Origin: Amoebidium appalachense | Lineage: Eukaryota > Protista > Ichthyosporea | DNA length: 64,000 nt | NCBI GenBank assembly: GCA_963693365.1 | Contig: CAVNZM010000002.1 | Span: 13,053,615 to 13,117,614, forward strand | Direction: 5' to 3' | Part shown: piece by piece, positions 4,347 through 36,327 of the stretch | How positions within the stretch are numbered: the stretch's first letter is position 1 | Layout: every line of letters begins with the position of its first letter | The notes under the pieces: model-generated | Seen by the model: the letters and a program-made list of their open reading frames with translations, nothing else | What the model was told of the DNA's origin: nothing | The model's database searches: none | Translations under genes and position numbers: made by a program

Positions 4347-5789
4347 TCAACCAGCTCCCAGCAGCAGCAGCACGAGCGCCACCGCGATCACCAGGCCCCA
4401 GTACGCCGCGGCGTTCGCGTGCGCCCAGGCGCTTGCCGACCCCAGTGGTGTTGGGGCAGGCTGTGTCGGCACAGGCGGCGCAGGCGGGTTCTGCGAGTCC
4501 TTTCCAGCCTCCCCAGGCACACCGGGTACGGCCGGAGCCCCGGGCTCTGAGGGCTTGTTGTCGGGGTTGGTGTTGGTGGTGGTGGCACCCGACTCCTCCT
4601 TGCCGATCTGCATGAGGCACTGCTGTACCTGCGTGGCCTGGATCTTGGCGTCAGTGTTCTCCGTGACCTCCATGGCCTGGTTGCAGATCTGCACGTTGAG
4701 CGCCGTGCACTCCTCGTTCTCCATGTCGCGCGTCTTGTAGCCCTGCACCTTGCACACGGCGTGGTGGCACTGCACGCTCCAGCCGAACTTCTTCTTGAGT
4801 GTGGCGTGGTCCATTCCCGCCGGCAGCGGCGCAAAGCACCCGCACGTGGGATCATTGACCCCGGCCTCGGTCTTGCAAAAGAACTCGGCATATGCATTCA
4901 CAGCGCTGTCCTGTGTTGCCGGGAAAAGGTAGTTCTTGTCCATGCGAGCCTGGTCGTGCAGCGGAACCACCGAATCGTCCCGCCCGCGCGAAAACTCGAG
5001 GAGGTCGCGCAGCCGCAGCGGCCTAGCGGTGTCCCAGTTCTGCTCTCGCTTGTAGTCAAACTTGTACAGCAGGTAGCGGTCGTGCATGCGCAGGAGGCTC
5101 ACGGGCCGCATGGTGTGGTCGTTTCCCTTGGCCAGCTCGCCGCGGTACTGGACTCGCAGCTTGGACTGCTGCAGGGACACAAGGTGGCGGTGCGGGGCGC
5201 GCAGCCAGTAGTCCGGGTTCCAGTACTTCTGGTAGTCGTCCCACTTCCAGTCCTGGTTCTTCCTGGAGGCCGAAGGGGCGCACATCTTGTCGCCGGGGTT
5301 GTACGTGGGGAAGGCCGGTTGGTCGCTGAGCGCCACGTAGTCGGCCGGGCACGTGAGCACCTTGAGCCGGGTGGCGTTCTGGCGGGTGCTGGCCGGGCAC
5401 CCAACGGCCTGTGCGTCCTCCTGGATGTCTGCCAGGCTGGGGGTGTAGCAGAATCGCGGGTCGTCGTAGATCAGACACACCAGGTCCGAGTCGACGGGGT
5501 TGTACTCGGGGTCGCCGTGGTTTCGCCTGCAGCCGTTGGGGTCCTCTGCGGTTGCACAGGAGGCCCACGACACAAAAGAGACGGCCTTGTACTTCGGAAA
5601 CGCAGGGTGTGGCAGGGGGAACTGGAGCTTGAGCGAGGGCATGCGCCCACCGTGGTGCGCCCACTCGTTGCCGAACTGCCAGTCCCACAGTTGCTTTCGG
5701 TACTCGTCCCAGCGCACGAACTTCCACGGGTAGTCCGGGTTCTCCTTGAGACGCTCGATGTCGTCCTTTCCCCAGGTGATGTTGGCCAT
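4347..5789 (-). CDS. Poxvirus G9/A16/J5-like entry-fusion membrane protein
   Basis: Cys scaffold FCKT..NDPTCGCF..QCHHAVC..GYKT..ECTALNVQICNQ, then a Pro-rich linker and a C-terminal TM helix. Confidence 0.8.
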   Translation of the reverse strand: MANITWGKDDIERLKENPDYPWKFVRWDEYRKQLWDWQFGNEWAHHGGRMPSLKLQFPLPHPAFPKYKAVSFVSWASCATAEDPNGCRRNHGDPEYNPVDSDLVCLIYDDPRFCYTPSLADIQEDAQAVGCPASTRQNATRLKVLTCPADYVALSDQPAFPTYNPGDKMCAPSASRKNQDWKWDDYQKYWNPDYWLRAPHRHLVSLQQSKLRVQYRGELAKGNDHTMRPVSLLRMHDRYLLYKFDYKREQNWDTARPLRLRDLLEFSRGRDDSVVPLHDQARMDKNYLFPATQDSAVNAYAEFFCKTEAGVNDPTCGCFAPLPAGMDHATLKKKFGWSVQCHHAVCKVQGYKTRDMENEECTALNVQICNQAMEVTENTDAKIQATQVQQCLMQIGKEESGATTTNTNPDNKPSEPGAPAVPGVPGEAGKDSQNPPAPPVPTQPAPTPLGSASAWAHANAAAYWGLVIAVALVLLLLGAG

Positions 5790-6556
5790 CAGTTACCATC
5801 CTCCCCATTAATTTGCGGACGCCGGGCCTGCAGCCACAGCAGCGCGCGTGCGGCCAGGGCGCCAGCCACGCCGCCAAGCAGGGGCCCCAGGAAGAAGATC
5901 CACAGGTGCTTCAGGTCGTGGCTGTCGCCAAACGTGGCCGCCGCAAGGCTGCGTGCGGGGTTGATGGAGCAGCCGGTGACAGTGACCAACAGCATGTGCA
6001 TGAGAAACACCACAGACCCGATGGCCAGAGGGGAAATGACGGGCGCGATGTTCGCAAGCTTGGGATGCTTGCATGCGAGCGACACCGTAAACACCAAGAA
6101 CGCCGTGGCGAGCAACTCCATGGCCAGGGCCTCGGCCTGGGTGGTCCCGCCGACAAGCCCGTTTGTTCCGAACGAGCCGTGGAGGGCGGGAGGCATGCCG
6201 GCCCGCAGCAACGCCGTGCCCACGATACCTCCGGTAAACTGGGCGGTGAAGTAGAGCGGGAGAAGCACGGGGTCCAGCCAACCGGCGGCAACCATGCCCA
6301 GAGTCACCGCCGGGTTGACGTGGGCACCCGACACGGGGCCCAGCACGGCCACCAGCCCCCCAACAACACCCCCGAACCCGGCGGCCACAGCAAGGACGTC
6401 AGCGGCCGATGATGCACCGTGTGAGGTTTCACCCGTGGCCATGGCGATGCCGATGGCGGTGAAGGTGAGCAGGGCGGTGCCGCAGAACTCGGCGATGAAG
6501 GTGGGTGCGTTGTGCAGGAGGAAGGACTTCACGCTCTGCATGGTTGAGTGTGGCAC
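5789..6556 (-). CDS. Aquaporin (MIP family)
   Basis: AEFCGT, SGAHVNPAVT and TGCSINPARS (two NPA motifs), WIFFLGPLLGG; six hydrophobic helices; intronless. Confidence 0.97.
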   Translation of the reverse strand: MPHSTMQSVKSFLLHNAPTFIAEFCGTALLTFTAIGIAMATGETSHGASSAADVLAVAAGFGGVVGGLVAVLGPVSGAHVNPAVTLGMVAAGWLDPVLLPLYFTAQFTGGIVGTALLRAGMPPALHGSFGTNGLVGGTTQAEALAMELLATAFLVFTVSLACKHPKLANIAPVISPLAIGSVVFLMHMLLVTVTGCSINPARSLAAATFGDSHDLKHLWIFFLGPLLGGVAGALAARALLWLQARRPQINGEDGN

Positions 6557-12946: not shown

Positions 12947-13837
12947 CTACCCCAGCACGTGCTTCTCCAGGAAGCGCACGGGGTACACCTTGACCGGGCG
13001 CAGGTCCCCCTGCACCATCTTCAACGTCTCCTCGGGCTCGCAGCCCTCCTGCTCGCGCCACGTGCGTGCGAGCATCCGGCCGACCGTGCTGCTGGATCTG
13101 TCGGTGATGCCTCGGTCGACGAGGAACTTGGCCACGGTCACGTACCCGCCGATCGCAGACTCCTCGATGGCCGTGCTGGTTCGGGTAGGGACAAGGATGT
13201 TGGCAAGGGTGTCGTTGAGCAGCATGCGCATGCGTGGGTCCCTGTCGAGGCCAAAGTCTTCCAGCAGGCCACGGTACATGGTGATGTTTTCCATCTCCAG
13301 GCGCCTGACCTCCGCCTCCTCCCGGCGCAGACGCAGCCGACGCTCCTCCTCCAGCTCCTCGCGGCGCCGCTTGCGGTCGGGGGTCTCGTCGGTGCCGTTG
13401 CGGAAGAACTCACGCTCCTCGGGGGTGCTGGCGTCGTAGCGCGCCTCAATCTCGGGGATGAGGGAGACGTCGCCGGAAAGCAGCCGGGCTATGTAGGTGG
13501 CACACGTCCTGCGGAACTCGTGGGCGCGCTTGCCGGGAAGCAGGAAGATGATCTCGAGGAGGACACGGAAGGGGGCTACATCAGTCTGGTTACCCTTGCC
13601 GTTGATTTTCAACCCATGAGTCTGACTCACGAGTTCACTCACGGGTGGATCCTTGCTATCCTTCAGGGCCTTCCAGGCTTGTCGAGCCGCGTCTCGGTTT
13701 CCAAGCACAATGGTTGCGGTATCCAGGACACTCGCCATCTTCGTATCCTCGTCAACACGTAGGACGGTGCCCTTGAACTGGGGGAACTCCCTCCAGAGAA
13801 GCGATATGTCGCCTTTTTTGTTCTGCTCACCAGCCAT
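12947..13837 (-). CDS. Bro/KilA-like viral DNA-binding protein with coiled coil and small C-terminal domain
   Basis: ASVLD...INGKG..T.VAP..LLEIIFLLPGKRAHEFR...LSGDVSLI, a phycodnavirus-type DNA-binding domain. Close paralog at 27378. Confidence 0.8.
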   Translation of the reverse strand: MAGEQNKKGDISLLWREFPQFKGTVLRVDEDTKMASVLDTATIVLGNRDAARQAWKALKDSKDPPVSELVSQTHGLKINGKGNQTDVAPFRVLLEIIFLLPGKRAHEFRRTCATYIARLLSGDVSLIPEIEARYDASTPEEREFFRNGTDETPDRKRRREELEEERRLRLRREEAEVRRLEMENITMYRGLLEDFGLDRDPRMRMLLNDTLANILVPTRTSTAIEESAIGGYVTVAKFLVDRGITDRSSSTVGRMLARTWREQEGCEPEETLKMVQGDLRPVKVYPVRFLEKHVLG

Positions 13838-13843
13838 GCTGTG

Positions 13844-14557
13844 TCAGAATGACGGGTTCTCCCCGGATACGTGGTCTTTTATACCCTCCAGTCCACCCAT
13901 TGCAATCGTCACAATGTCATTCACTACGCTGTACACACAGAATCCCTCTGCGTGCGGGTTGTAGCGCAGCCACCGGCATCCCAGAGCCTTGGTTATGTAG
14001 TTCTGGCGCTCCTCCTCATACACTGGGTTGCGACCGTCATGGTTGTGCTCATCGCACTCGACTGCCAGATTCAGAGCCGGAAAATAGAGATCGATCCGGT
14101 AGGGTTTTACGCAGAATTGTAGCGAGCTTTCAAAGTACGCCGTGCACCGCCGGATAACAGATATTGTTTCGCTTTCGATGTAGGTTTGCATCATCACACC
14201 TACCGGCAATTCAAACTTGGAAGCCCAGTAGGTCTTTCTGTCGGCTGATATTCTGCAACCAGGGAGGATGGCCGCAACTATCTGGCGCATCCCATCCCAA
14301 GGTGCTACCGGCGTCGGCGTGCCTTTGCCATTGATACGGATAACAGAAACACTTGAAACTGTGGATAGACTGGGACTGCTTTTAAACGACTTCCATGCTT
14401 GACGGGCAGCGGCACTGTTACCAAGCATGATGGTCAATGTGTCCAGAACGCTAAACTTCGCAGCATGCCCCTCTCCGTGCACCCTAATCAATTTAAACTG
14501 GGGGAACTCCTTCCAGAGCATCAACATGTCGCCTTTTTTGTTCTGCTCGCCAGCCAT
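13844..14557 (-). CDS. Bro-like DNA-binding domain plus DUF559/Vsr-like endonuclease
   Basis: Same MAGEQNKKGD N-terminus; YRIDLYFP..LAVECDEHNH..R...RYNPH. Confidence 0.85.
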   Translation of the reverse strand: MAGEQNKKGDMLMLWKEFPQFKLIRVHGEGHAAKFSVLDTLTIMLGNSAAARQAWKSFKSSPSLSTVSSVSVIRINGKGTPTPVAPWDGMRQIVAAILPGCRISADRKTYWASKFELPVGVMMQTYIESETISVIRRCTAYFESSLQFCVKPYRIDLYFPALNLAVECDEHNHDGRNPVYEEERQNYITKALGCRWLRYNPHAEGFCVYSVVNDIVTIAMGGLEGIKDHVSGENPSF

Positions 14558-21460: not shown

Positions 21461-22108
21461 ATGCCTAGTCAAAGCCAAAAATACATAGGAGAAGACTATG
21501 CTGATCCAAAGTCACAAACTGCAAAGATAAACCACCTTGAGCCTGTGTACTCAAAAAATGGGATGCTACTGACCATGAAAGAGGTTAGGGAGGATGGGTC
21601 TGTGTGGTACAATGCCACTTTGTATTTTAAACAATATGGTACAACATTTTCAAATTGGCTCAAGCTACAGAAAGTACAAAAAATCGTTGGTGGATTAAAT
21701 GAAAACGTTGACTACAGCATGTACCATTACAAAGGGATGTACCATGATTACCTCAGGGGAACATGGGTCAAGGATACTCTCGCAAAATATATGATGTTGT
21801 ATCATGGGCAAAAAGCAAGCCCAATCTACAGGGAAGCCATGATTCAACATGCTTTAGCGGAAAAAGAAGATGGAAAACGAGAGATTTGCACTGCAACTGG
21901 GCCAGTAGATGTGATCACAGCGACCCATGTCATCGAAGTTAAGAGGGGTAAGCGTTGGAAAGAGGCTGTGGGTCAGATAATGGTGGATCGACTTCATTTT
22001 CCTCACCTTCAGCCTCGTCTGCACTTTTTTGATGTTTCGGAAAACGAAAAGGAACAAATCGAATGGGTTTGCTCTGCATACAATATCATGGTTACATACG
22101 AAGAGTAG
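21461..22108 (+). CDS. KilA-N plus PD-(D/E)XK-type nuclease
   Basis: WYNATLYF...FSNWLKL...RGTWV (KilA-N); GPVDVIT..VIEVKR..WKEAVGQ. Confidence 0.85.
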   Translation: MPSQSQKYIGEDYADPKSQTAKINHLEPVYSKNGMLLTMKEVREDGSVWYNATLYFKQYGTTFSNWLKLQKVQKIVGGLNENVDYSMYHYKGMYHDYLRGTWVKDTLAKYMMLYHGQKASPIYREAMIQHALAEKEDGKREICTATGPVDVITATHVIEVKRGKRWKEAVGQIMVDRLHFPHLQPRLHFFDVSENEKEQIEWVCSAYNIMVTYEE

Positions 22109-23118: not shown

Positions 23119-24675
23119 TCAACAGCCCAGTCTGGGCTGCACGCTGGCGGGGACCAGCCCCTCGTATGCGTTCCTGAACACCTGCGCCGTGTACTTGAAC
23201 TCGGCAACCTCTGGGCTGTGGGGTACCTCCCGCTCCAGCCAAACCGCCGTGGCCAAGATGATGGTGTAGGCCTGGCGGGCAGTGATCTCTGTGGACATGA
23301 CCGCACGTCCCCAGCCGAGTGCTGAGCGCAGCTTGATGGCGCGCTGGATAGCCATGTCAGCTCCGATGACCCCCACCACTGCCGTGTCGGGCTTGTCGGT
23401 GTAGATGTCCACGTTCAGCACCTCGAGTACATAGCGGCGCACGAGTCCAACAGAGCCCTTGGTAGACCCTCCAAACATGGCGGCGGTGACGCTGCGGGGA
23501 AGGTTGTACAGGCGGTCACGCAGGAAGGGGTTGCCTGTGCCACCGAGGGCGGAGCTGTCCGGGTCCTCGGGTAGGATGCGGGGGGTGAAGGCCTGGGCCG
23601 TGCTGTTGAGGGCGCTGGTGAGGCGGGCCACGTGGGACTTGCTGTACTCGATGATGAGCTGCTGCTGCTCAATGAGGGTGTCCCGGTCTCGGATGGTCTT
23701 GTTGCGCTCCTCGATGGTAATGTTCCGGTCCTCGATTGTGCGCTGCATGTTCTGGAGCAGCGTCTGCCAGTAGGCAGCCCCGTGCTCCTCGGATCCCCCG
23801 GCACCCCCGTTCTCCACGTACTCCCCGAACAGGCGAGCGCCGCTGCCCTCGGGGAGGGACTCCTGAAGACGACGGTTGGCGCGCACCTCGTCAACCAAAG
23901 TCTCGTCACCACCCAGGTAGCGCACGATGAGCTCAGCGGCCGCAGCCTTGAAAGCAGCAACCTTGGGACCGGTCAGGGCCAGGATGATGCGCACCAGCTG
24001 CTTAGCATCGGCAATTGGGGTTGAACGCTCCTGATCGACCCACTCCGAAAGCTGGAGTGAGTTAATCAGTCCGGGTTCGGCCACTGTCAGCTCGTTGATC
24101 TTTTGATGTGGGTTGCCATAGCCAATCGCAACGAGCACATCAAACACATCCGCCTTCCGGGGCACGGTGTTGGTGCAGCGGATGGTCTTGCCGCTCCAGT
24201 CACCACCACCCTCTCCGAACTTGAACAGGGTCGCGGCCAGCCCGTCGCCGTCGAGGTCCATGCCCGGAACCGCCGTGGGCAGCTGGCGCATGGCTTCGGC
24301 AAGGGCCTTGTTGTCCGCCACCTTCCAGATGCTGATGGAGGGGTCGCCGAGTACACCACGCACGGAGGTGGCGTGCACCTGTTCACGCAGGCGGACGAGG
24401 GACAGGGTCTTGCCGGACGGCAGGGTGCGGGTGTCCTGGGCGACAACCCCAAATCGCTTGGTGTCGCCGAGGGCTGTGGCGGCACGCTCGTGCAGGTCGG
24501 TGTGGTCGGAGAGGAGCGCCCAGTAGCGGATGCGGGAGCGCTCGGGGTCAAGCAGAAGGGTGCGGATGGTGTCCTCAAGGGATGCGTTCTCCTCCATACT
24601 GTCGTCCGTGTCCATGCTGTCGATGTTGTCGCTCTGCATGTTGTTGTTGATGTCCATGTTCTGGGTTGTCTCCAT
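23119..24675 (-). CDS. Multidomain protein with Bro-like DNA-binding domain and coiled coil
   Basis: ADVFDVL...TPIADAKQLVRIILALTGPKVAAFK...RYLGGDETLVDEV; TATAAAA at 24721-24727 supports the ATG at 24675. Confidence 0.8.
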   Translation of the reverse strand: METTQNMDINNNMQSDNIDSMDTDDSMEENASLEDTIRTLLLDPERSRIRYWALLSDHTDLHERAATALGDTKRFGVVAQDTRTLPSGKTLSLVRLREQVHATSVRGVLGDPSISIWKVADNKALAEAMRQLPTAVPGMDLDGDGLAATLFKFGEGGGDWSGKTIRCTNTVPRKADVFDVLVAIGYGNPHQKINELTVAEPGLINSLQLSEWVDQERSTPIADAKQLVRIILALTGPKVAAFKAAAAELIVRYLGGDETLVDEVRANRRLQESLPEGSGARLFGEYVENGGAGGSEEHGAAYWQTLLQNMQRTIEDRNITIEERNKTIRDRDTLIEQQQLIIEYSKSHVARLTSALNSTAQAFTPRILPEDPDSSALGGTGNPFLRDRLYNLPRSVTAAMFGGSTKGSVGLVRRYVLEVLNVDIYTDKPDTAVVGVIGADMAIQRAIKLRSALGWGRAVMSTEITARQAYTIILATAVWLEREVPHSPEVAEFKYTAQVFRNAYEGLVPASVQPRLGC

Positions 24676-27079: not shown

Positions 27080-27377
27080 GGATAATAGTTGTGGGGGCAG
27101 GGGTGTTCTTGTTTGTTGGGGGGTGGGGGGCGGGAGGTCCCAGAGCTGGTTGTGTTCTATTTATTGGGGCCTGCCCTCTGTTTGAAGAAACGAAACTTTG
27201 AAGGTATGTCGTTGGGCTACTGCGATTGAAGAAACGAAACTTTGAAGGCATGTCGTTGGGTCCGGAACAGCAGGCGACAACTTCCCTCCCTTACCAAACG
27301 AGCAATTGGTCACTTTGACCAATTGGTCCCCTGTCGTATCCAATAGATGCTGGTTGGTGTGCCTCGGCCACTATAAA

Positions 27378-28295
27378 CTACACAACGTGCTTCGCCAGGA
27401 AGCTCACAGGGTACAGCTTGACCGTGCGCACGTCCCCGTTGACCACCATCTGCGTCGTCTCGGGCTCGCACCCCATCTCGTCACGCCAGGCCTTGCTGAC
27501 CATGCGGCCGAGCGCAGAGGCGGATTTGCACTTGATGCCACGGTCGACCACAAACTTCCCCACCGTGACATAGTCGGAGAGGGTGGTGCCTTCGATGGCT
27601 CGCAGACCCTGGTTGGGGAGCAGCATGTTGGAGACCGAGTCGTTGACGAGCTGACGCATGCGCGGGTCACGGTCCAGCCCCAGGCGCTCAAGCAGCGCCT
27701 CGTACTGGACGAGGTTGTCCATAGCCATCTTCTGGTTCTCCCTCTCGAGACGCGTGATCTCCGCCTCCTCCCGGCGCAGACGCAGCCTCCGCTCCTCCTC
27801 CAGCTCCTCGCGGCGGCGCTTGCGGTCAGGGGTCTCGTCCGTGCCGTTGCGGAAGAACTCGCGCTCCTCGGGGGTGCTGTTGTCGTAGCGGGCCTCGATC
27901 TCCTCGATGAGAAGCAAATCGCCAGAGAGGAGGCGCGCCATGTACTGGGCAGAAGTCTTACGGAAATCATGAGCGCGCTTGCCAGGGAGCAGGTAGATGA
28001 TCTCGAGGAGGGTGCGGAAGGGGGCAACCGGGGTAAGTTTGCCAGTGCCATTGATCCGGACTTGGGGACACAGAGTCCCCATCTTTTCCTCGAGTTGTTT
28101 GTAGTCATCGGACAACTGAATTCGCTGCCACGACTTCTTGGCCGCTTCGTTGCTCTCCAAGATCAGCTGCAGAACATCGAGGACGCTCGCCATCTTGCTG
28201 GCTTTGTCGACGCGGACCGTTGCATCCTTGAACTGGGGGAACTCCTTCCACAGAAGCGACATGTCCACCTTTGAGTTGCTCTGTCCGGTAGCCAT
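27378..28295 (-). CDS. Bro/KilA-like DNA-binding protein (paralog of 12947-13837)
   Basis: Long identical stretch STPEEREFFRNGTDETPDRKRRREELEEERRLRLRREEAE. Confidence 0.85.
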   Translation of the reverse strand: MATGQSNSKVDMSLLWKEFPQFKDATVRVDKASKMASVLDVLQLILESNEAAKKSWQRIQLSDDYKQLEEKMGTLCPQVRINGTGKLTPVAPFRTLLEIIYLLPGKRAHDFRKTSAQYMARLLSGDLLLIEEIEARYDNSTPEEREFFRNGTDETPDRKRRREELEEERRLRLRREEAEITRLERENQKMAMDNLVQYEALLERLGLDRDPRMRQLVNDSVSNMLLPNQGLRAIEGTTLSDYVTVGKFVVDRGIKCKSASALGRMVSKAWRDEMGCEPETTQMVVNGDVRTVKLYPVSFLAKHVV

Positions 28296-28370
28296 GCTGT
28301 GTCAGACTGACCCCAGGTGGCCGTGTGTGCTCCTTTTATACCTGCGCGTGGCGCCCTCAGTCGTGCTGAG
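28293..28370 (-). promoter_or_regulatory. Duplicated TATA promoter/leader cassette (copy 1)
   Basis: Near-identical to 30030-30107: CCTCAG..CTGAGG hairpin, GGTATAAAAGGAG, then tctgacacagcATG. Confidence 0.8.
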
Positions 28371-28406
28371 GGCAGGTTGGTGCTTATCCATTGAAATGTC
28401 GTGGGG

Positions 28407-30032
28407 CTACTGTGCTTGCTCCTGGCTGGCTTTCTTGAACACGCTGATGACGAGGTCCCTTGTCAAGTCGTCCTCCATGTGTTCCCTTGCCATCTCCAGC
28501 ATGGCTCCTGCAAAAGTGACAAAGTCCACACGGAACAGCTCGCGCTCGACGTTCTTGTGTTTGAGTGCCGTGTGCAGACACTTCTCCGCAAGCGCCAGCT
28601 GCTCGGACGGCACGGGCAGCGCAAAGAGCAGGCGCTTGTTGGGTCCCACATGCCACGTACCGGCCTGCTTCATGCGGCCCTTCACGTCCTTCAGACTGAG
28701 TCCGATTTTCAGGCAGGGCGGGTCGCCGTATTCGGACACAAACACGTAGATGCCGGACTGCTGCTTGGTGCACACGTGGTTGGTGACCCGGCGCAGCTCC
28801 TCGCTGGCATCCTCATATTCGGATGGGATGTGGTCCTGCTTGATGCTGTCTGTTGTCTGGAGCTCCAAAAGCCGGCACTGCGCCTCGATCTTCAGGCGCT
28901 CCTCTCGAATCACACTTCCGCGCTTGTCACACAGAGCGCCTTCCTCACGCATCATCATGATCTCCGTGTACTGAGCAGATTCGGCGATGCGCGCCTCCTT
29001 GTACAGACTCAGCGCAGTTTCCATCTCGGCCTGGTTGGTCATGAAGTGGGTGATGTCCCCTAGCTTGAGTCTCTTGGGCTCCCTCTCGGGTGTCCTGTCG
29101 GCATCCATTTCTGCTCGCACACTGTCACGCATGAAAGCGTTGGGTCCTGACGGGTTGGCCGCTGCCGCGGCACGGTTGCGCTCGATGTCCTCCACGAGAG
29201 TTTCGTCTCCACCTTCCAGGCGCGCTATGTCTCGGGCCCACTTGTCGATGATCGCGGAACCATAGCGTGAGCCAGATGCAATCTTGAAGGTCAGCTTGAC
29301 CAATGAAGTTGCAGGAACACCAGGAGATGGTTTTCCCCCAGTACCAAAGTGGCAATCGGTCATTTTGACCGATTGCTTGAGGGATGGGTCTTCGAAGATA
29401 CGCCGTAGATATCGACCGGCTGCGTCTCTATCCAAACCGCGGACAAGCATGGTATAGTCCACGAGACTCGCCATCTTCACACCATCAACCTCACACACTC
29501 GGATGGCGTGGTCACCTATGCAAATTGTGTCGCCTTTTTTTGCGGCAATCTCGTCTCCAGTCAATACCACATTTGTGTGTTCGGAATTCATAGTTGGGGA
29601 AACTGAGGTGTTGTCATGTGTGTTCAGTCCTTTTATACCTTCGGCCTCGCTCACATGGTTAACTTCGTTGGACATCAGGCGCTTGATATCCAGGCGCGCT
29701 ATGTCTCGGGCCCACTTGTCGATGATCGCGGAACCATAGCGCGAGCCGGATGCCATCTTGAAGGTCAGTTTCACCAACGATGAAGCAGGAACACCGATCG
29801 AGGGTCGCTTTGAATCGCCGAACCTCAAAGGCCTCATGTCGAGGCCTTTGATTTCCTCTTCATTCTGATAATGTCGTCTGACATACTCAGCGGCCGCATG
29901 TCTGTCTAAATTGCGCACTAGCATTGCATAATCAACAAGACTGGCGTATTTAACACCTTCGGATTGAGCAACTCGCACTACATAGTCACCAATGCAGATG
30001 GTGTCGCCTCTTTTGTTCTGCTCGCCAACCAT
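28407..30032 (-). CDS. Tandem Bro-like domains plus T5orf172 (GIY-YIG-like) nuclease
   Basis: Duplicated GDTICIGD..ASLVDY..SGSRYGSAIIDKWARDIARL; C-terminal GIYVF..LKIGLS..RMKQ..AEKCLH..RELF. Confidence 0.85.
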   Translation of the reverse strand: MVGEQNKRGDTICIGDYVVRVAQSEGVKYASLVDYAMLVRNLDRHAAAEYVRRHYQNEEEIKGLDMRPLRFGDSKRPSIGVPASSLVKLTFKMASGSRYGSAIIDKWARDIARLDIKRLMSNEVNHVSEAEGIKGLNTHDNTSVSPTMNSEHTNVVLTGDEIAAKKGDTICIGDHAIRVCEVDGVKMASLVDYTMLVRGLDRDAAGRYLRRIFEDPSLKQSVKMTDCHFGTGGKPSPGVPATSLVKLTFKIASGSRYGSAIIDKWARDIARLEGGDETLVEDIERNRAAAAANPSGPNAFMRDSVRAEMDADRTPEREPKRLKLGDITHFMTNQAEMETALSLYKEARIAESAQYTEIMMMREEGALCDKRGSVIREERLKIEAQCRLLELQTTDSIKQDHIPSEYEDASEELRRVTNHVCTKQQSGIYVFVSEYGDPPCLKIGLSLKDVKGRMKQAGTWHVGPNKRLLFALPVPSEQLALAEKCLHTALKHKNVERELFRVDFVTFAGAMLEMAREHMEDDLTRDLVISVFKKASQEQAQ

Positions 30033-30107
30033 CCTGTGTCAGACTGACCCCAGGTGGCCGTGTGTGCTCCTTTTATACCTGCGCGTGGCACCCTCAGTCG
30101 TGCTGAG
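30030..30107 (-). promoter_or_regulatory. Duplicated TATA promoter/leader cassette (copy 2)
   Basis: Matches 28293-28370; TATAAAA at 30071-30077. Confidence 0.8.
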
Positions 30108-30194
30108 GATATGTTGGTGAGCATACTTGACTTGAAAGAACTTGAGGGATCGCCAAATCTCAAAAGCTTTTGATTTCTTCTTCGTACTGCGGCC

Positions 30195-30440
30195 CTGCGC
30201 GGGGCGTGGGGGGCTGGGAGGGGCTGGGAGGGGCTGGGGGTGCCTCGTCTGCCTCGCATGCCTCGCATGCCTCGCGCGCAGGAACGGCTGTGTGCGCCGT
30301 GTGTGCGTGTGCCCGTGTGCCTCGCCTGCCTCGCCTGCCTCGCCTGCCTCGCGCGGGGTGTGTTCGTGCTTCCTTTATTGTTCCTCGTGTGCCCCCCACA
30401 GCCCCCCACAGCCACCCCCAGCCACCCGCGCCCCGGGGAG
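30195..30440 (-). terminator. Putative 3'-end element: AATAAA within G/C-complementary arms and 10-bp GCCTCGCATG repeats
   Basis: Lies downstream of the 30452 ORF; homologous copy at 30965-31120 and a partial inverted copy at ~35720-35775. Confidence 0.45.
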
Positions 30441-30451
30441 GTGTCACGCCA

Positions 30452-30865
30452 TCAACGCCCGGACTTCCGAGCCTCTGGCGCAGCGGCGGGTGCCGTGTGC
30501 ACGGGTGGGGGGGCACTGTGGGGCCCAACCGGAAACAGCCCGTACAGGATGTCCTCCTCGCACGTCACCATGATCTCGTGCTTGTCCATGATCCTCATGG
30601 CGTGCGCGATGGTTTCGGCGGGCACGGGCGGGCCGTGGTTGAACAGGTGCACGCGCATCTCCTTGTCGGGGTGGAAGTGGTGGTTCGCCAGCACGTTCGC
30701 CATGGCGGTCTTCCAGTCGGCCAGCTGCTCGACCTGGACGATCTGGTGGTCCGTCAGCACGTCGATGCGCCCGACCTTGGTGAGCGTGTCCTCGACGCCT
30801 TCCAGCCGGTCGGCCAGCTCGTATACGACCATGTTCCGTGCGAACTCAAGCTCGGTGTCCGTCAT
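30452..30865 (-). CDS. Short PD-(D/E)XK-family paralog, predicted inactive
   Basis: GRIDVLTDHQIVQVEQLADWKTAMAN: the ExK motif is replaced by QVE. Confidence 0.8.
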   Translation of the reverse strand: MTDTELEFARNMVVYELADRLEGVEDTLTKVGRIDVLTDHQIVQVEQLADWKTAMANVLANHHFHPDKEMRVHLFNHGPPVPAETIAHAMRIMDKHEIMVTCEEDILYGLFPVGPHSAPPPVHTAPAAAPEARKSGR

Positions 30866-30964
30866 CACATACCGCACACATAAAATTCGCGTGCCGCCCC
30901 AACCGGGTTACCCATTGACAATCACACATCGCACTTTCGACCTTGTGTGGGCGCCCGACAATGT

Positions 30965-31120
30965 TGCGGCGCGTGGGGGGCGGGGGTGGCTGGGCGGGGC
31001 TGGGGGGTGCCTCGCGTGCCTCGCGTGCCTCGCATGCCTCGCGCGCGCGGTGGTTCCGGTGGTTCGTTTATTGGTTCCTTGTGTGCCCCCCCAGCCACCC
31101 CCAGCCACCCAGGGCCCCGG
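30965..31120 (-). terminator. Second copy of the putative 3'-end element
   Basis: ggctggggggtgcctcgcgtgcctcg...tttattg...ccccagccacccccagccaccc downstream of the 31139 ORF. Confidence 0.45.
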
Positions 31121-31138
31121 GGGGGGGGGGGGGGGGGG

Positions 31139-31852
31139 TTAACTCTCAGCCAGATGATCCATCTCATCTCGCATACCGGAACCCAGTGTGCTCTGAAGCT
31201 GGTAGCATTGAACAATTTGACTGCGGTTGTTCAACTTTGGGTGCCCAGGCCATAATGTCACATTTGCAATACGCACACAACTGACTTTTCCCAGCAACGA
31301 TGTCATGAGCATACCAAAGCTTCGAATGGACCAGTTGGAGGTTTCCTTCGTATGATGTGGAAGCCACACGATGAAAAGTGAAAACAAACCCGAGGGAGTG
31401 ATGTACGACCCTGGTGCGATGTTACAGTTAGCAGGCAACCATACAGCATTGCCGGAACACAATTCATGTAAGAAACCAATGGCACACTGCTGGTTGCATT
31501 CATGCTCTGTAGGTTGCACCAACAGCCCCGTCTTCTTTGCTCTGGTGTTTCGCTCGTGGCTACACGTGACACGGATACCATGGGCTTGCAAGATCTCCAC
31601 GACATACGGGAAGGTTTTCGATCGCTTGTATCCGTACAAGTGAACCCGCATTGTATGGTTCGGGTAGAAGTGGTGGTATGCCTGAACCTGCCCCATGGCT
31701 TCCTTCCATCTTGAAAACTCCTTGACCTCGATGACCTCTTGGTCGGTCAATACATCGATACGTCCTACTGGGGTGTGGATTTCTGTACGGCCATTTTCAA
31801 GCCTTGCAAGTTCATCCCTGACAACACTCTCAGATGGTTCCCGACTAGCCAT
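31139..31852 (-). CDS. PD-(D/E)XK nuclease plus C-terminal winged-helix-like domain
   Basis: GRIDVLTDQEVIEVKEFSRWKEAMGQVQAY; tail GFLHEL...ITPSGLFSLF..W...SIRSFGMLMTSLLG. Confidence 0.85.
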   Translation of the reverse strand: MASREPSESVVRDELARLENGRTEIHTPVGRIDVLTDQEVIEVKEFSRWKEAMGQVQAYHHFYPNHTMRVHLYGYKRSKTFPYVVEILQAHGIRVTCSHERNTRAKKTGLLVQPTEHECNQQCAIGFLHELCSGNAVWLPANCNIAPGSYITPSGLFSLFIVWLPHHTKETSNWSIRSFGMLMTSLLGKVSCVRIANVTLWPGHPKLNNRSQIVQCYQLQSTLGSGMRDEMDHLAES

Positions 31853-31919
31853 ATCCAGTATCTGCACAGAAAATATCTGATCCGTCACAGTCTGAGCAAC
31901 CTTCACTCACTGTTGCGAC

Positions 31920-32240
31920 GAAGCTAAAGTCGCTACACACGAAGCTAAACCGAAACCATGTTTCACTAATAGAAATTGACTTTTTAGCTGCTTTTTACTA
32001 TGATTTAGCTTCGTTAGCTAGATTAGCTAGATAAAATGAGGTCAATCGTAGCAAAAAATAAACACAGAGGGCTGTGTGTGTGTGTGTTTATGGAGGGACC
32101 CAAAAACCATCCAGCTATCCAGCTAAAGTAGCTAAACCGTGATATTTAGCCAATCACAAACAAGAAAAAACACTTCGACCAATGAAATTGCCCGGATCTG
32201 GGTGTCGACGAAGCTACACGACGAAGCTATCAAGCTAAAT
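31920..32240. promoter_or_regulatory. Iteron-like AGCTA/TAGCT cluster (candidate replication origin)
   Basis: About 12 AGCT(A) motifs in opposing orientations around an A/T- and GT-rich core, directly downstream of the helicase gene. Confidence 0.55.
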
Positions 32241-32258
32241 CGGGTGGTTCTGGTATGG

Positions 32259-34316
32259 TCACTTGAAATTCATGATTTTTGCGAAATCGAGCAAATGAGC
32301 ACGTGTGTGTCTTCCAGGCGTCCCTCGTGAAACTCTTCCTCCTGCGGGTACGAAGGCTGAACCGCCAAACACCTGTGTCAGTACCGTGCCGAGCTTCTTG
32401 ACCCCGACAACCTTTCGGCCATCCATCATGTTTGCATCGGCCCACTCTTTCATGCACTCCACCAAGCCACTCGTTGTGGCCCAGGTGCCATCCTCGAGAC
32501 CGAAACTATCTGTCCCCTCGGCGCCAGTTGCGACGTCCCTCAGAAATTGTATCTCAATGGGCAGACTCTTCTCCATGAGCTTCTGTTTGAGTTTTGTTTG
32601 TGGCGGCGGCGGCATTGTTTTAGGGACATTGGGAAGGTCCAAGAAGAAGTGAAACAGAGCCTCCAGCACCTCCGGTTGCCGGTGAAATCTGACGAACTCG
32701 TCGAAGTACCGGAGCTGACCCACCCGAGAGCCGTTTGCCTCGAGACATATGAATCTCCGATCGGATAGCTCCACACGAACGGGCCAGTCTTCGTTTGACA
32801 GAAAGACGTAGCGCTCAAAGTTTTTGGTGTAGATGCCATCCACACCCTTCTTCTCCAAAAGGCTGTCTTCTTGTGTGATCAGACTTTTGATAAGGTTGTT
32901 GGCCTCGTGGCACCCACCAAAGACACACTCGTCGATAACAGCTAATAGTTTGTGGTTGAGGTGGGAGTTGAACTTGCTGGATATATGTTCCTTGTTCTTC
33001 ACGTAGGCGTAGTATTCCGAGCCAACCAGCGCCTTGAGTACGTCGAAGAACACGTTTTTCCCGGTTCCCTGGACTGACTTGACAAGTACCGCCGCTCCAG
33101 ACTTAGTGTCGGGGTACTGGAAGATCTGGGCCACCCACTTGAGAAGGTATTCGAATGCCTCGGCGTTTCCATCGGCAAGCACCTCGAATGCGTGGCGTAT
33201 GAACATCTCGATGCCACCGTATTCATGTACACGGTACTTGTCGAGGAGCTGATCCGGCATGACCACAACCTTCTGGCCAGGATGGTAGGGGATCACGGGG
33301 CATTCTGGACCCATGTAACGGAATCCCTCGGCGTACTTGATGGGGAAGCCGCGAAAGAAGTTATATGTGAACAGGGCTCCTTGGCGGTACTTTGGGTTTG
33401 TCTCTCCTGTCTTGGGATTGGGCGACGCGGGGTCAAAGACTGCTAGTCCATAACGAGGAATGCGGCGTCCCATAAGGAAGTCAATGCCGGTGTATGTCCG
33501 CTTGATTTCACAACCCTCGCCCTCCATCCACTCGACCACAAAACCCTGCATGGTGCATTTCATGTCTTTTTCGGTCAACGTCTTGAGTGTGTACACGCCC
33601 TTGTCATGGCACCACACCTTCAAGAGGTAGAGGGAGGTTCCGCTGATTTTTCCCACCCACTTCTGCAGGTACTCGACGAGCTCAGTTTCCTTCCAGGTGG
33701 TTGGTAGCAGGTCCGGCATGAACTCGTATCCACCCGGAGGGTCGGTCGACTCCTGCTCCAGAACACGAAACACCTCCTCAATATGAGCCAGCCGCTTGCT
33801 GTCCTTTTTCGCAACCACAGCGGGGACAGCTGCCGTACAAGGTGCTTCGCCGAATGTGGTCGTATGGGGCCCCTGGGTCCAACGCGTCGCGGTCGTCCAG
33901 TCGAGAATCGGGTTCATTACTACCCTGTTGGCCAAAGGAAATTTCTCCTTGGCCCATGACTTGAGCGCAGCTCTGTTAGGCCCGGGAGCTGGGTGGCGGG
34001 TGTTGCACTCGTAGTGTGCGGTCTTGTGGCGCTTGGACTGACGGGTGGTTATTTCGGCATAAACCAGTCCAAACTGTCGCTTGAGGGAATTGTGGAGGTC
34101 GTTGTGATCGAAGGGCTCATTGTCCACCGTAACTTCCCGGGACCCCTGTGGTGCAAAGACTGCGAGGTACCAGTCAGGACAGGCACTGCGGCGCGAGAGC
34201 CCTTGGTTTGCCTGCTTGGGTTGATCTGCACCCTCGCAGCAAACCTCGTATTCGGTCTTCTCCGTATCCTTGCCGTCGCACCGGGCAGTGTTCATGTTTG
34301 AGCGAATGACATCCAT
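32259..34316 (-). CDS. DUF5906/D5-like SF3 helicase with C-terminal winged helix
   Basis: Walker A VQGTGKN, Walker B LAVIDE, KSLIT..EKKG, FLSNE..PV..DRRF; TATAAAA at 34370-34376. Confidence 0.93.
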   Translation of the reverse strand: MDVIRSNMNTARCDGKDTEKTEYEVCCEGADQPKQANQGLSRRSACPDWYLAVFAPQGSREVTVDNEPFDHNDLHNSLKRQFGLVYAEITTRQSKRHKTAHYECNTRHPAPGPNRAALKSWAKEKFPLANRVVMNPILDWTTATRWTQGPHTTTFGEAPCTAAVPAVVAKKDSKRLAHIEEVFRVLEQESTDPPGGYEFMPDLLPTTWKETELVEYLQKWVGKISGTSLYLLKVWCHDKGVYTLKTLTEKDMKCTMQGFVVEWMEGEGCEIKRTYTGIDFLMGRRIPRYGLAVFDPASPNPKTGETNPKYRQGALFTYNFFRGFPIKYAEGFRYMGPECPVIPYHPGQKVVVMPDQLLDKYRVHEYGGIEMFIRHAFEVLADGNAEAFEYLLKWVAQIFQYPDTKSGAAVLVKSVQGTGKNVFFDVLKALVGSEYYAYVKNKEHISSKFNSHLNHKLLAVIDECVFGGCHEANNLIKSLITQEDSLLEKKGVDGIYTKNFERYVFLSNEDWPVRVELSDRRFICLEANGSRVGQLRYFDEFVRFHRQPEVLEALFHFFLDLPNVPKTMPPPPQTKLKQKLMEKSLPIEIQFLRDVATGAEGTDSFGLEDGTWATTSGLVECMKEWADANMMDGRKVVGVKKLGTVLTQVFGGSAFVPAGGRVSRGTPGRHTRAHLLDFAKIMNFK

Positions 34317-34371
34317 TGTGGTAGTGAATGGGATAGATAATATTTGACGGTCTGAGGTCTGGCAAGCGCTT

Positions 34372-34827
34372 TTATACCTTCGGGCTGGGCACAAGACTGG
34401 GGTGTTCAGTCTCGACGTGCCTGTTCAGGGTTGTAGACCAGGCAAATGCAGCCTGGCACTGGTCGAAGGGGCATGTAAAACGCCCGCTTGCGCGCCGGGG
34501 CCGTCTCGGCAGCTGACACCCTTCATGAGCTGTTCGTCGGTGAACCCACAAACCCGCAGGATAGACGTAAGTGGCTGGACAGTCTGGGCATTGATAGGGT
34601 CGGCTGCCAGAGTGTGTGCGCTGGTGCAGTTTCATGTGGTCGCTGCGGGCAAAGCTTGCAAAGCAGCCGGGTTGTGGACAGGCATATGCGCCGGTGCTAT
34701 TATTCTTGTGGGTATTTTCGTGTCTTTTTAGATTTGCCTTGAATGTGAACATTGCTGAACACAGTGTGCAAGCGTGGCGCTTCGGGTTAGGGGGTGTCTC
34801 TATGGTTGGCGTGTATTGGAGGTCCAT
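34372..34827 (-). CDS. C2H2 zinc-finger protein (4 fingers)
   Basis: CTLC..HENTH, CPQPGC..HQRTHSGSRPYQCPDC..HRRTAH, CPFDQC..HVETEH. Confidence 0.92.
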   Translation of the reverse strand: MDLQYTPTIETPPNPKRHACTLCSAMFTFKANLKRHENTHKNNSTGAYACPQPGCFASFARSDHMKLHQRTHSGSRPYQCPDCPATYVYPAGLWVHRRTAHEGCQLPRRPRRASGRFTCPFDQCQAAFAWSTTLNRHVETEHPSLVPSPKV

Positions 34828-34919
34828 TACTGCTAAGTGGCAAGAAAAGAAACATGATAACGCTTTATATAACCCCTGGTCTTCTTCGTCGGCCACTGAT
34901 TTTTTTGTGACCTACAGTG

Positions 34920-35609
34920 ATGGCCACCTACAACGAGGCGTTTTTCAGCGACAAATTGGCACGGATTGAAGGTGGGAAACGCGAAGTGGTGACCCCCGCG
35001 GGCCGCATCGACCTGCTCACAGACACGGACATCATCGAGGTCAAGCGCGCACCGCAGTGGAAGGCTGCACTCGGACAGGTGCAGGCGTACCAACAGTATT
35101 ATCCCAACCACCAACCACGGGTCCATTTGTTTGGCTATGCGTCGGCAGAGGTGTACAAGGTGGCTGTTGAAACCATAATGGCCCTTGGAGTGATCCTTAC
35201 AGTAGAACAGGATACACTACAATTTATATGGGGCCCACGTGCACGCCTAACCCCAACATCCAGCATTGAGAACAGGGAAGCTCAGTTTCTGAAAGACCTC
35301 ATAGCACACAGAAACGGTTGCGAGAGCTTTACCTTCATCCAGCCCGAATGTTCAGTCACACCCAGTGGTCTCTACCAACTCTACCAGCACTGGCATAAAA
35401 TCAACCTTCAAGATGACCACACCCCAAGTCTGAAGACTTTTGGTACAAGGATGACAAAGATTCTCGGACATACCAAATCAACCTGTACTCCACATATCTG
35501 CACATGGCCTGGTCACAAGCCTACCTGGTCGAGTGGCAGGGCAGACTGTTACACTCTGTCAACAACAGCCATATTCAAGGTGGGGGATCGATTACCGAAC
35601 CAGCTCTGA
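34920..35609 (+). CDS. PD-(D/E)XK nuclease plus C-terminal winged-helix-like domain
   Basis: GRIDLLTDTDIIEVKRAPQWKAALGQVQAY; tail EAQFLKDL...VTPSGLYQLYQHW...SLKTFGTRMTKILG. Confidence 0.88.
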   Translation: MATYNEAFFSDKLARIEGGKREVVTPAGRIDLLTDTDIIEVKRAPQWKAALGQVQAYQQYYPNHQPRVHLFGYASAEVYKVAVETIMALGVILTVEQDTLQFIWGPRARLTPTSSIENREAQFLKDLIAHRNGCESFTFIQPECSVTPSGLYQLYQHWHKINLQDDHTPSLKTFGTRMTKILGHTKSTCTPHICTWPGHKPTWSSGRADCYTLSTTAIFKVGDRLPNQL

Positions 35610-35805
35610 ACCACTGGCTCACGGGGTGCGCAGGCTCAGGGTTCAGCGACAACGCGGTAACTTGTTATATGAAGAGGATGTGGCAAGGGTAATGCATTTA
35701 TGGGGACAATGTTTCTTTCTGGCTTGGGAGGCATGCGAGGCTTGGGTGGCATGCGAGGCTTGGGGGGCACGAGAGGCCCGCGTTTTTTTCTGCGCACTGT
35801 ACAGG

Positions 35806-36162
35806 ATGTCCGCGGTAGGCTACGACGAGGCGTTCGTGCGCGAGCGACTGGCCGAGCTCGAGGACGGGGTGTGCGGGGTGCCCACACGGGCCGGCCGGAT
35901 CGACGTGCTGACGAGCACGCAGGTCATCGAGGTCCAGCGCGCGTCGCAGTGGAAGACGGCGATCGGAAACGTGCTCGCATACAGCCACTACTACCCCGAC
36001 CGCCAGCCGAGGATCCACCTGTTCGACTATGCGCCGGCAGACGTGTACAGGATTGCCGTGCAAACCATCACGTCGCTCAACATCACGCTTACAACCGAAG
36101 AGGACACGTTGCAGCTGATTTGGGGGGACGACGCGGGCAAAGACGTAAAAGACGAAAAATAA
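35806..36162 (+). CDS. Short PD-(D/E)XK-family paralog, predicted inactive
   Basis: GRIDVLTSTQVIEVQRASQWKTAIGN: catalytic K replaced by Q; stop lies in an AATAAATAAATAA tract. Confidence 0.85.
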   Translation: MSAVGYDEAFVRERLAELEDGVCGVPTRAGRIDVLTSTQVIEVQRASQWKTAIGNVLAYSHYYPDRQPRIHLFDYAPADVYRIAVQTITSLNITLTTEEDTLQLIWGDDAGKDVKDEK

Positions 36163-36257
36163 ATAAATAAGCCACGGGCAAAAAGGTCAAAGCAGCGCAG
36201 AGTTTGCCAATATCCGGTCAAAGCTAGCGCAAAGTAGTGAACATTCAATAAAGCTAG

Positions 36258-36327
36258 CGCACACGGTAATAGCGCTCATGACCCTACTCTCAAACAACAC
36301 AGGTGCAAGCGCACGCATATCCCCCCC

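Follow-up and report, generated by a model that had tools for sequence, protein, structure and literature searches.

The described systems closest to the locus reported here include the following three, as far as the accessible text of each source goes. Odn (Gp88) of vibriophage ICP1 is a nuclease whose RepA_N domain is a copy, 42% identical, of that of a rival, and it needs the rival's iterons to cut (PMC8263062). Origins of Staphylococcus aureus pathogenicity islands (SaPIs) consist of short iterons right after rep, with an AT-rich centre, and are read by the C-terminal winged-helix domain (WHD) of Rep (PMC9371898). In nucleocytoviruses and polinton-like viruses (PLVs), nuclease conflict has been proposed as a driver of replicon turnover (PMC11296320). 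The locus lies at 30195–36162 of a 64,000-nt stretch of the Amoebidium appalachense genome (hereafter the window; GCA_963693365.1, contig CAVNZM010000002.1, forward-strand positions 13,053,615–13,117,614), where an NrS-1/D5-type helicase with an AGCTA repeat array and a C2H2 zinc-finger gene is flanked on each side by a long nuclease (L1, L2) and a short, tail-less paralog of it (S1, S2). By sequence comparison, the C-terminal tails of L1 and L2 are homologous to the C-terminal winged helix of the helicase family (Pox_D5-like), and tail trees indicate that they descend from other helicases of this family, not from the resident one. With moderate confidence we propose that L1 and L2 would attack the origins of rival replicons, by exclusion or homing.

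The likeness to Odn lies in the fusion of a nuclease to the origin-binding domain of another element's initiator (identity 42% in Odn, 46% in L2) and in Odn's target population, with its variant initiator domains and origins; at the sequence level, both the fusion of nuclease and initiator domain and a binding domain matching another element's initiator were found, with seven helicase tails sampled. Odn differs in its T5orf172/GIY-YIG nuclease, N-terminal RepA_N, phage-satellite target and demonstrated activity, whereas L1 and L2 have a NucS-like PD-(D/E)XK domain (a Pfam scan found no T5orf172/GIY-YIG catalytic domain in either), a winged helix of D5/NrS-1 helicase type, Lys-less partners, related viruses as presumed rivals, and predicted activity. 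Rep/PriRep5 and ori of SaPIs (PMC9371898) share with the locus a fold-related helicase, a C-terminal WHD and short repeats directly downstream around an AT-rich stretch, but belong to a bacterial island, for which the accessible text mentions no flanking tailed nucleases, and binding of the repeats by the WHD is predicted here. Accessory D5-like helicases of entomopoxviruses and PLVs, found with T5orf172 homing-type nucleases (PMC11296320), are similar in having helicase, repeats and nuclease genes close together in a variable nucleocytovirus region; their nucleases are of another superfamily, and neither helicase-tail fusion nor inactive paralogs are reported in the accessible part of that paper. 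No paper on this nuclease/helicase-tail fusion or on paired Lys-less copies was found in the literature covered, which includes PMC8715426 and outside which lie subscription journals and supplements. Against that literature, the locus looks like an undescribed variant of the origin-directed nuclease idea, set apart by its nuclease family, by helicase tails of non-self type and by the pairing with Lys-less copies.

Alignment of the nuclease tails with the helicase C-terminus, noticed by eye in a first-pass annotation of the window, was borne out for both nucleases. The L2 tail matches the resident helicase tail with a local score of 80 (z 13.7, 0/5000 shuffles); the pairwise match of the L1 tail is weak (z 2.7, 126/5000 shuffles), and it is linked to the family through the L2 tail (z 18.5, 0/5000 shuffles) and through a hidden Markov model (HMM) built from helicase tails only, which detects it at E 4e-5 among 173 proteins. 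The tail motif given in that annotation is true of L2, the L1 tail being of a different type. Comparison of tailed nucleases with helicases in hhalign gave 98.5% (E 2.6e-15), the models of L2 and the helicase have the same order of helices and strands in the tail, and for the tail of P0167, a homologue, 21/30 Atlas matches are to clusters bearing Pox_D5, at 0.95. Searched by sequence against the PDB, the tail had no match under E 0.35.

Homologues were taken from the best 150 of 1549 matches, ranked by likeness to L2, a ranking that favours intact copies; 148 gave a domain. These best matches include eight tailed nucleases (seven complete, and the fragment P0072) and one helicase, P0024. In P0020 and P0141 the order is reversed, with the tail N-terminal and the nuclease C-terminal. 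A tail-profile search returned only four proteins, all already in the set, and the tail fusion was found in 0/132 fetched loci; because none of these loci has the tail or a Lys-less paralog, synteny beyond this element family rests on database tags.

In a tree of 17 tails (7 helicase, 10 nuclease), a 99/97 branch parts the resident helicase tail from the tails of both L1 and L2. The L2 tail pairs with that of the foreign helicase P0024 (84/91), to which it is 46% identical, compared with 22% to the resident tail; the L1 tail is 54% identical to the P0021 tail, with which it shares its type, and 16% to the resident tail; and the P0022 tail pairs with helicase P0007 (98/97, 50%). Four sisterhood hypotheses were submitted to approximately unbiased (AU) tests after the tree had been seen: sisterhood with the resident helicase was rejected for L2 (p-AU 9e-4) and L1 (p-AU 6e-6), as was that of P0021 with its neighbouring helicase (p-AU 3e-4), a neighbourhood taken only from their equal longest-contig figure. 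Thus capture of a helicase winged helix, as first annotated, stands at the level of the family but not with the resident helicase as source, and the accompanying idea that the nucleases are targeted to the resident origin is not supported, given the tail tree and the rejected sisterhoods.

A single clade of all 10 nuclease tails was rejected (p-AU 4e-50), while in a nuclease-domain tree of 30 rows chosen from 153 domains, a single 97/96 clade unites S1, S2 and the nuclease domains of all nine tail fusions in the tree; one nuclease lineage has therefore taken tails from several helicase lineages. P0020 and P0141, sisters in their nuclease domains (100/100), have tails in opposite tail clades, which by tree comparison is a direct tail swap. 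Helicase P0008 (51% identity to the window helicase) and tailed nuclease P0167 bear consecutive locus tags (GHT06_003767/8) in a Daphnia sinensis assembly, both with a longest contig of 183,011 nt, so that the pair of helicase and tailed nuclease recurs elsewhere; here too the nuclease tail is closer to P0024 (44%) than to the neighbouring helicase (33%).

Judged from models, the nuclease domain has a NucS-like PD-(D/E)XK fold with a restriction-endonuclease-like alpha/beta core. The best fold match of the N-terminal domain in the AF2 model of L2 (pLDDT 88.6) is NucS 2vld (VIA, Z 9.8 with a tool bar of Z 8; root-mean-square deviation 2.4, 89 residues aligned), followed by 1y88 (Z 8.9) and Can2 (Z 8.1); Foldseek against the PDB gave no match under E 0.001. 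The NCBIfam NucS model (NF003270) matches weakly over the catalytic strands (E 0.003–0.08, 12–17 bits) and only at positions 152–202 of 250, and the 11.9 bits of L2 against a curated cut-off of 216 rule out membership of NucS/EndoMS, the fold alone being shared. Apart from one stray, Pfam had no nuclease-domain match under E 0.01 in 51 members, and none for L1 or L2; no Pfam, NCBIfam or PHROG model scores above its cut-off. Among the matches listed, E40, K42 and Q53 (L2 numbering) are present in 148/148 domains and D31 and Y57 in 147/148 each; L1 and L2 have the full D/E/K/Q/Y set.

The size of this family, with 1549 representatives matching L2 at E <= 0.001 and varied partner domains (KilA-N, HTH and Rha in the family survey), the KilA-N fusion in the same window, and the variable presence of genes around the helicase among related copies all suit ordinary domain shuffling. 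The winged helix would then be an interchangeable module, the genes would pass between relatives through recombination close to the replicon, and the disagreement with the resident helicase would be a matter of history that implies no targeting. We regard this as rather unlikely, since the tail fusions, S1 and S2 belong to one clade (97/96) with tails from several helicase lineages, which argues for repeated retargeting, and nuclease-helicase adjacency recurs. In loci L109–L132, the nuclease domain was common in cyanobacterial, Chloroflexi and Burkholderia genomes.

Matches of the helicase by fold are NrS-1 (E 3e-17), the SaPI5 primase-helicase, the PrimPol of African swine fever virus and poxvirus D5/E5. 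Directly past its stop, AGCTA/TAGCT occurs 15 times in 31900–32260, at 12 distinct sites in both orientations (shuffle mean 0.96; 0/2000 shuffles reach 15), with an A+T-rich stretch at 31940–32059 (30–33% GC). By analogy with SaPI Rep, from which the helicase family is taken as initiator, the array is likely a candidate origin and the helicase its initiator. Related copies contain alternative versions of the array at 31903–32313, with 36 differences and 7 gaps (depth 406 in X1), and of the helicase tail at 32472–32762, with 22 differences (depth 377), one of each; their similar depths, though no contig joins them, suggest a co-varying tail/origin pair. In viral contigs, neither the helicase nor L2, used singly as query, had a close relative; a helicase alignment picked up three distant loci there and none among metagenome contigs. 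The N-terminal domain of the helicase (33850–34187, minus strand, residues about 44–155) is compact, of order beta-alpha-beta-beta-alpha-beta, and its strand 3 bears a conserved His. Pfam has no match for it, and Atlas gives a weak primase-like lead (0.92, families inconsistent); an HUH-Rep reading is unsupported.

L1 starts about 70 nt from the array and both nuclease tails are homologous to the resident helicase tail, as might be expected if the nucleases acted on their own AGCTA origin, either by nicking for initiation or resolution or as an addiction system, with the dead paralogs in control; a separate nicking nuclease acting with an SF3 helicase has been proposed for the entomopoxvirus helicase/T5orf172 pairs in the accessible text of PMC11296320. 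Such action on the own origin is improbable in view of tails just 16–22% identical to the resident one, with sisterhood rejected, and of the distribution of related contigs. Compared with the helicase and zinc-finger genes, L1 and the L2 tail lie under far shallower contigs, and each nuclease is affected by a deletion joint, a poor fit with an essential role. Contig depth does not equal copy number and is used as a hint only: in X8 it is 34.6 for S1, 25.3 for S2, 12 for the helicase and 2.8 for L1; in X1 it falls from 1148 at the L2 start to 36 over the L2 tail and reaches 1447 at the S2 end; the same positions in X2 give 124, 7.3 and 248; and 35180–35679 has zero cover in X8 and X16. One X16 contig joins 34966 to 35721 and so leaves out most of L2, resuming at the repeat that precedes S2, and a joint from 31495 to 31916, with short sides, skips the L1 nuclease domain. 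The depths hint that the short genes are kept more widely than the long ones. Related copies do not keep the complete mirror layout as a fixed unit; elsewhere, recurrence was seen for the pair of helicase and tailed nuclease (P0008/P0167).

As first annotated, the inner nucleases keep D..ExK and both outer paralogs have lost the Lys. At positions 40/42/53/57, S1 has Q/E/N/N and so is without the invariant E40, K42 and Q53 and the near-invariant Y57; S2 has E/Q/N/Y and is without K42, Q53 and also E22. In a six-frame scan of 132 fetched loci plus the window, D/E/K was kept in 133/135 scorable domains, the exceptions being S1 and S2. S1 groups with L1/P0021 (95/95) on a long branch (3.15) and S2 is nearest L2 (56–58% identity), so that each likely arose beside its own nuclease and the Lys was lost twice; the tree does not favour one common origin for the two short paralogs (two changes, against one change in 5% of bootstraps). 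An adjacent cognate partner, as in pseudo-enzyme antidotes, is thus present in both cases, and this pairing is compatible with a function of the short paralogs in regulation or immunity.

The long branch of S1, copies that skip it and the absence of Lys-less paralogs from the other loci scanned could also mean that S1 and S2 are decaying or repurposed duplicates without control over L1 and L2, which themselves may still be targeted nucleases. We think this reading quite unlikely: both frames are intact, the structural core is kept (G-R-I-D-x-L-T, W-K, R-x-H-L), both paralogs have Asn in place of the invariant Gln53, and S2 variants are mostly synonymous among the best-supported rows listed (6/8, compared with 16/28 in L2 and 11/19 in the helicase).

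The proposed attack on rival origins draws on the domain make-up, the loss of invariant residues, the non-self ancestry of the tails, their repeated capture and the recurrence of the helicase-nuclease pair. The mechanism, deduced as regards origin function, DNA targets, cleavage and what S1 and S2 do, would run as follows. The helicase and AGCTA array would be the virus's own initiator and origin, and L1 and L2 would be chimeric NucS-like nucleases with winged-helix tails of other helicases in the family; this tail ancestry predicts that they would bind and cut origins belonging to competing relatives, with their own origin spared. A cut at a rival origin might exclude a co-infecting or resident relative or, alternatively, lead to copying of the replicon block into the broken locus, as with homing nucleases. 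S1 and S2, tail-less Lys-less copies of their neighbours, may bind the nuclease domain of their own partner and so restrain off-target cuts. More tentatively, these features could reflect an arms race over origins among related genome-integrating giant viruses, in which one nuclease lineage repeatedly takes the origin-reading winged helix of rival helicases and turns it on their origins, and each nuclease spawns a dead antidote that outlives it as orphan immunity.

Several observations weigh against this proposal. Compared with solved winged helices (ORC, oriT-binding and RFX5 chains), the tail (residues 112–229) reaches Z 5.5–5.8, below the VIA bar. The fusion of the nuclease domain to many generic DNA-binding domains means that the tail could be one more shuffled module, and binding and cleavage are predicted only. 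In the fourth AU test, sisterhood of the P0008 and P0167 tails was not rejected (p-AU 0.054); the link between P0024 and P0021 consists of an equal longest-contig figure (7624); and a tail swap between helicase cores had no support (p-AU 0.24). None of the seven helicase tails sampled is of L1 type, so the L1 donor is unseen and a close foreign match is at hand for L2 only. As to S1 and S2, Lys-less paralogs were found in 0/130 domains of the 132 other loci, a joint from 30082 to 30907, with short sides, skips S1, and the synonymous share of S2 is drawn from eight best-supported rows.

Nucleocytovirus origins and initiators are, to our knowledge, poorly defined, and the locus offers a concrete pair of helicase tail and iterons open to testing. 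L1 and L2 would represent a eukaryotic-virus counterpart of Odn, built from another nuclease family that is widespread yet without a Pfam model. If specificity lies in the tails, the module would amount to a naturally occurring collection of nucleases open to retargeting, and it would be a candidate for the mechanism by which endogenous giant viruses exclude superinfection and turn over their replicons.

The gene order and strands first annotated were confirmed by open reading frame (ORF) calls, taken from the first ATG (Table 1). The mirror symmetry seen there is one of gene content only: inverted repeats reach no more than 54 and 46 nt (70–74% identity, within the nuclease core) and L1 and L2 are about 35% identical, which rules out a recent inverted duplication, and the complete mirror is not shared by all related copies. 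A repeat on the right is indeed inverted, and its inversion follows gene direction, since GCCTCGC repeats precede S1, S2 and the 28407–30032 gene, each in the orientation of the gene. Just beyond S2, two AAGCTAGCGCA repeats sharing the AGCTA core lie in 36180–36270, a stretch of high depth with numerous loose ends and one go-back joint. This stretch is followed by an array of 50-nt repeats with inverted arms, reaching 37480; it may be the element end or a second binding site.

Table 1 Genes and repeat elements of the module, and the related nuclease gene elsewhere in the window.
Feature	Position	Strand	Remarks
S1, short NucS-like paralog, tail-less, 137 aa	30452–30865	-	reads QVE
L1, long nuclease, 237 aa	31139–31852	-	reads D..EVK; tail about 31175–31486
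Helicase, NrS-1/D5-type, 685 aa	32259–34316	-	DUF5906, E 2.9e-20; C-terminal winged helix 32262–32558
C2H2 zinc-finger protein, 151 aa	34372–34827	-	zf-C2H2, 4 stretches; divergent from L2
L2, long nuclease, 229 aa	34920–35609	+	reads D..EVK; tail 35274–35585
S2, short paralog, tail-less, 118 aa	35806–36162	+	reads EVQ
AGCTA iteron-like array, candidate origin	31918–32237		directly downstream of helicase
GC-rich element, GCCTCGC 9-mer repeats, between S1 and next gene	30199–30352 (repeats 30251–30346)		direct-repeat partner of 30966–31046
Second GCCTCGC element, upstream of S1	30966–31046 (repeat 31009–31036)		
Inverted GCCTCGC copy, upstream of S2	35721–35777 (35735/35753)		
KilA-N fused to NucS-like nuclease domain (fifth paralog, D/E/K intact)	21461–22108	+	outside module

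The module belongs to a giant-virus-like segment set within DNA of eukaryotic type. The left 36 kb of the window are dense in genes, with long unbroken ORFs and genes of giant-virus type. The combination of KilA-N with this nuclease domain is a common giant-virus architecture of the family (mimivirus-type KilA-N proteins and other giant viruses in BFVD); other giant-virus-type genes include a weak A22/Ydc2-like resolvase match, DUF559 and a T5orf172 hint. In three of four runs, 27300–36250 is covered by 316 to 1191 aligning contigs, which differ by degrees in their likeness to it, so that the segment is one of a family of many diverged copies. The Amoebidium genome holds many divergent giant endogenous viral insertions with exon-containing JmjC genes inside, according to the main text of PMC11244446, in which the words ‘helicase’ and ‘nuclease’ are absent; the window is alike in its JmjC stretch and in the many diverged contigs over the module. 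From sequence, the segment fits these endogenous viruses in its many diverged copies, JmjC stretch, weak A22-like resolvase match and KilA-N gene. Neither capsid nor VLTF3 was found among 27 further window ORFs scanned.

A gene family at 12947–14557, 23119–24675 and 27378–30032 has related DNA-binding-like N-terminal domains with shared starts (MAGEQNKKGD-type) and varied C-termini, among them DUF559-like and T5orf172-like nuclease domains; TTTTATACCT (plus strand) precedes several of them. An aquaporin gene (MIP, E 7e-45; 5789–6541, minus strand) also lies within the viral segment. The right part of the window is microsatellite-rich, with an EGF-repeat ORF and the JmjC stretch (39777–40088, minus strand; E 1.5e-12), which lies amid microsatellite DNA and resembles the KDM4-like genes with several exons that have been reported from viral insertions of Amoebidium.

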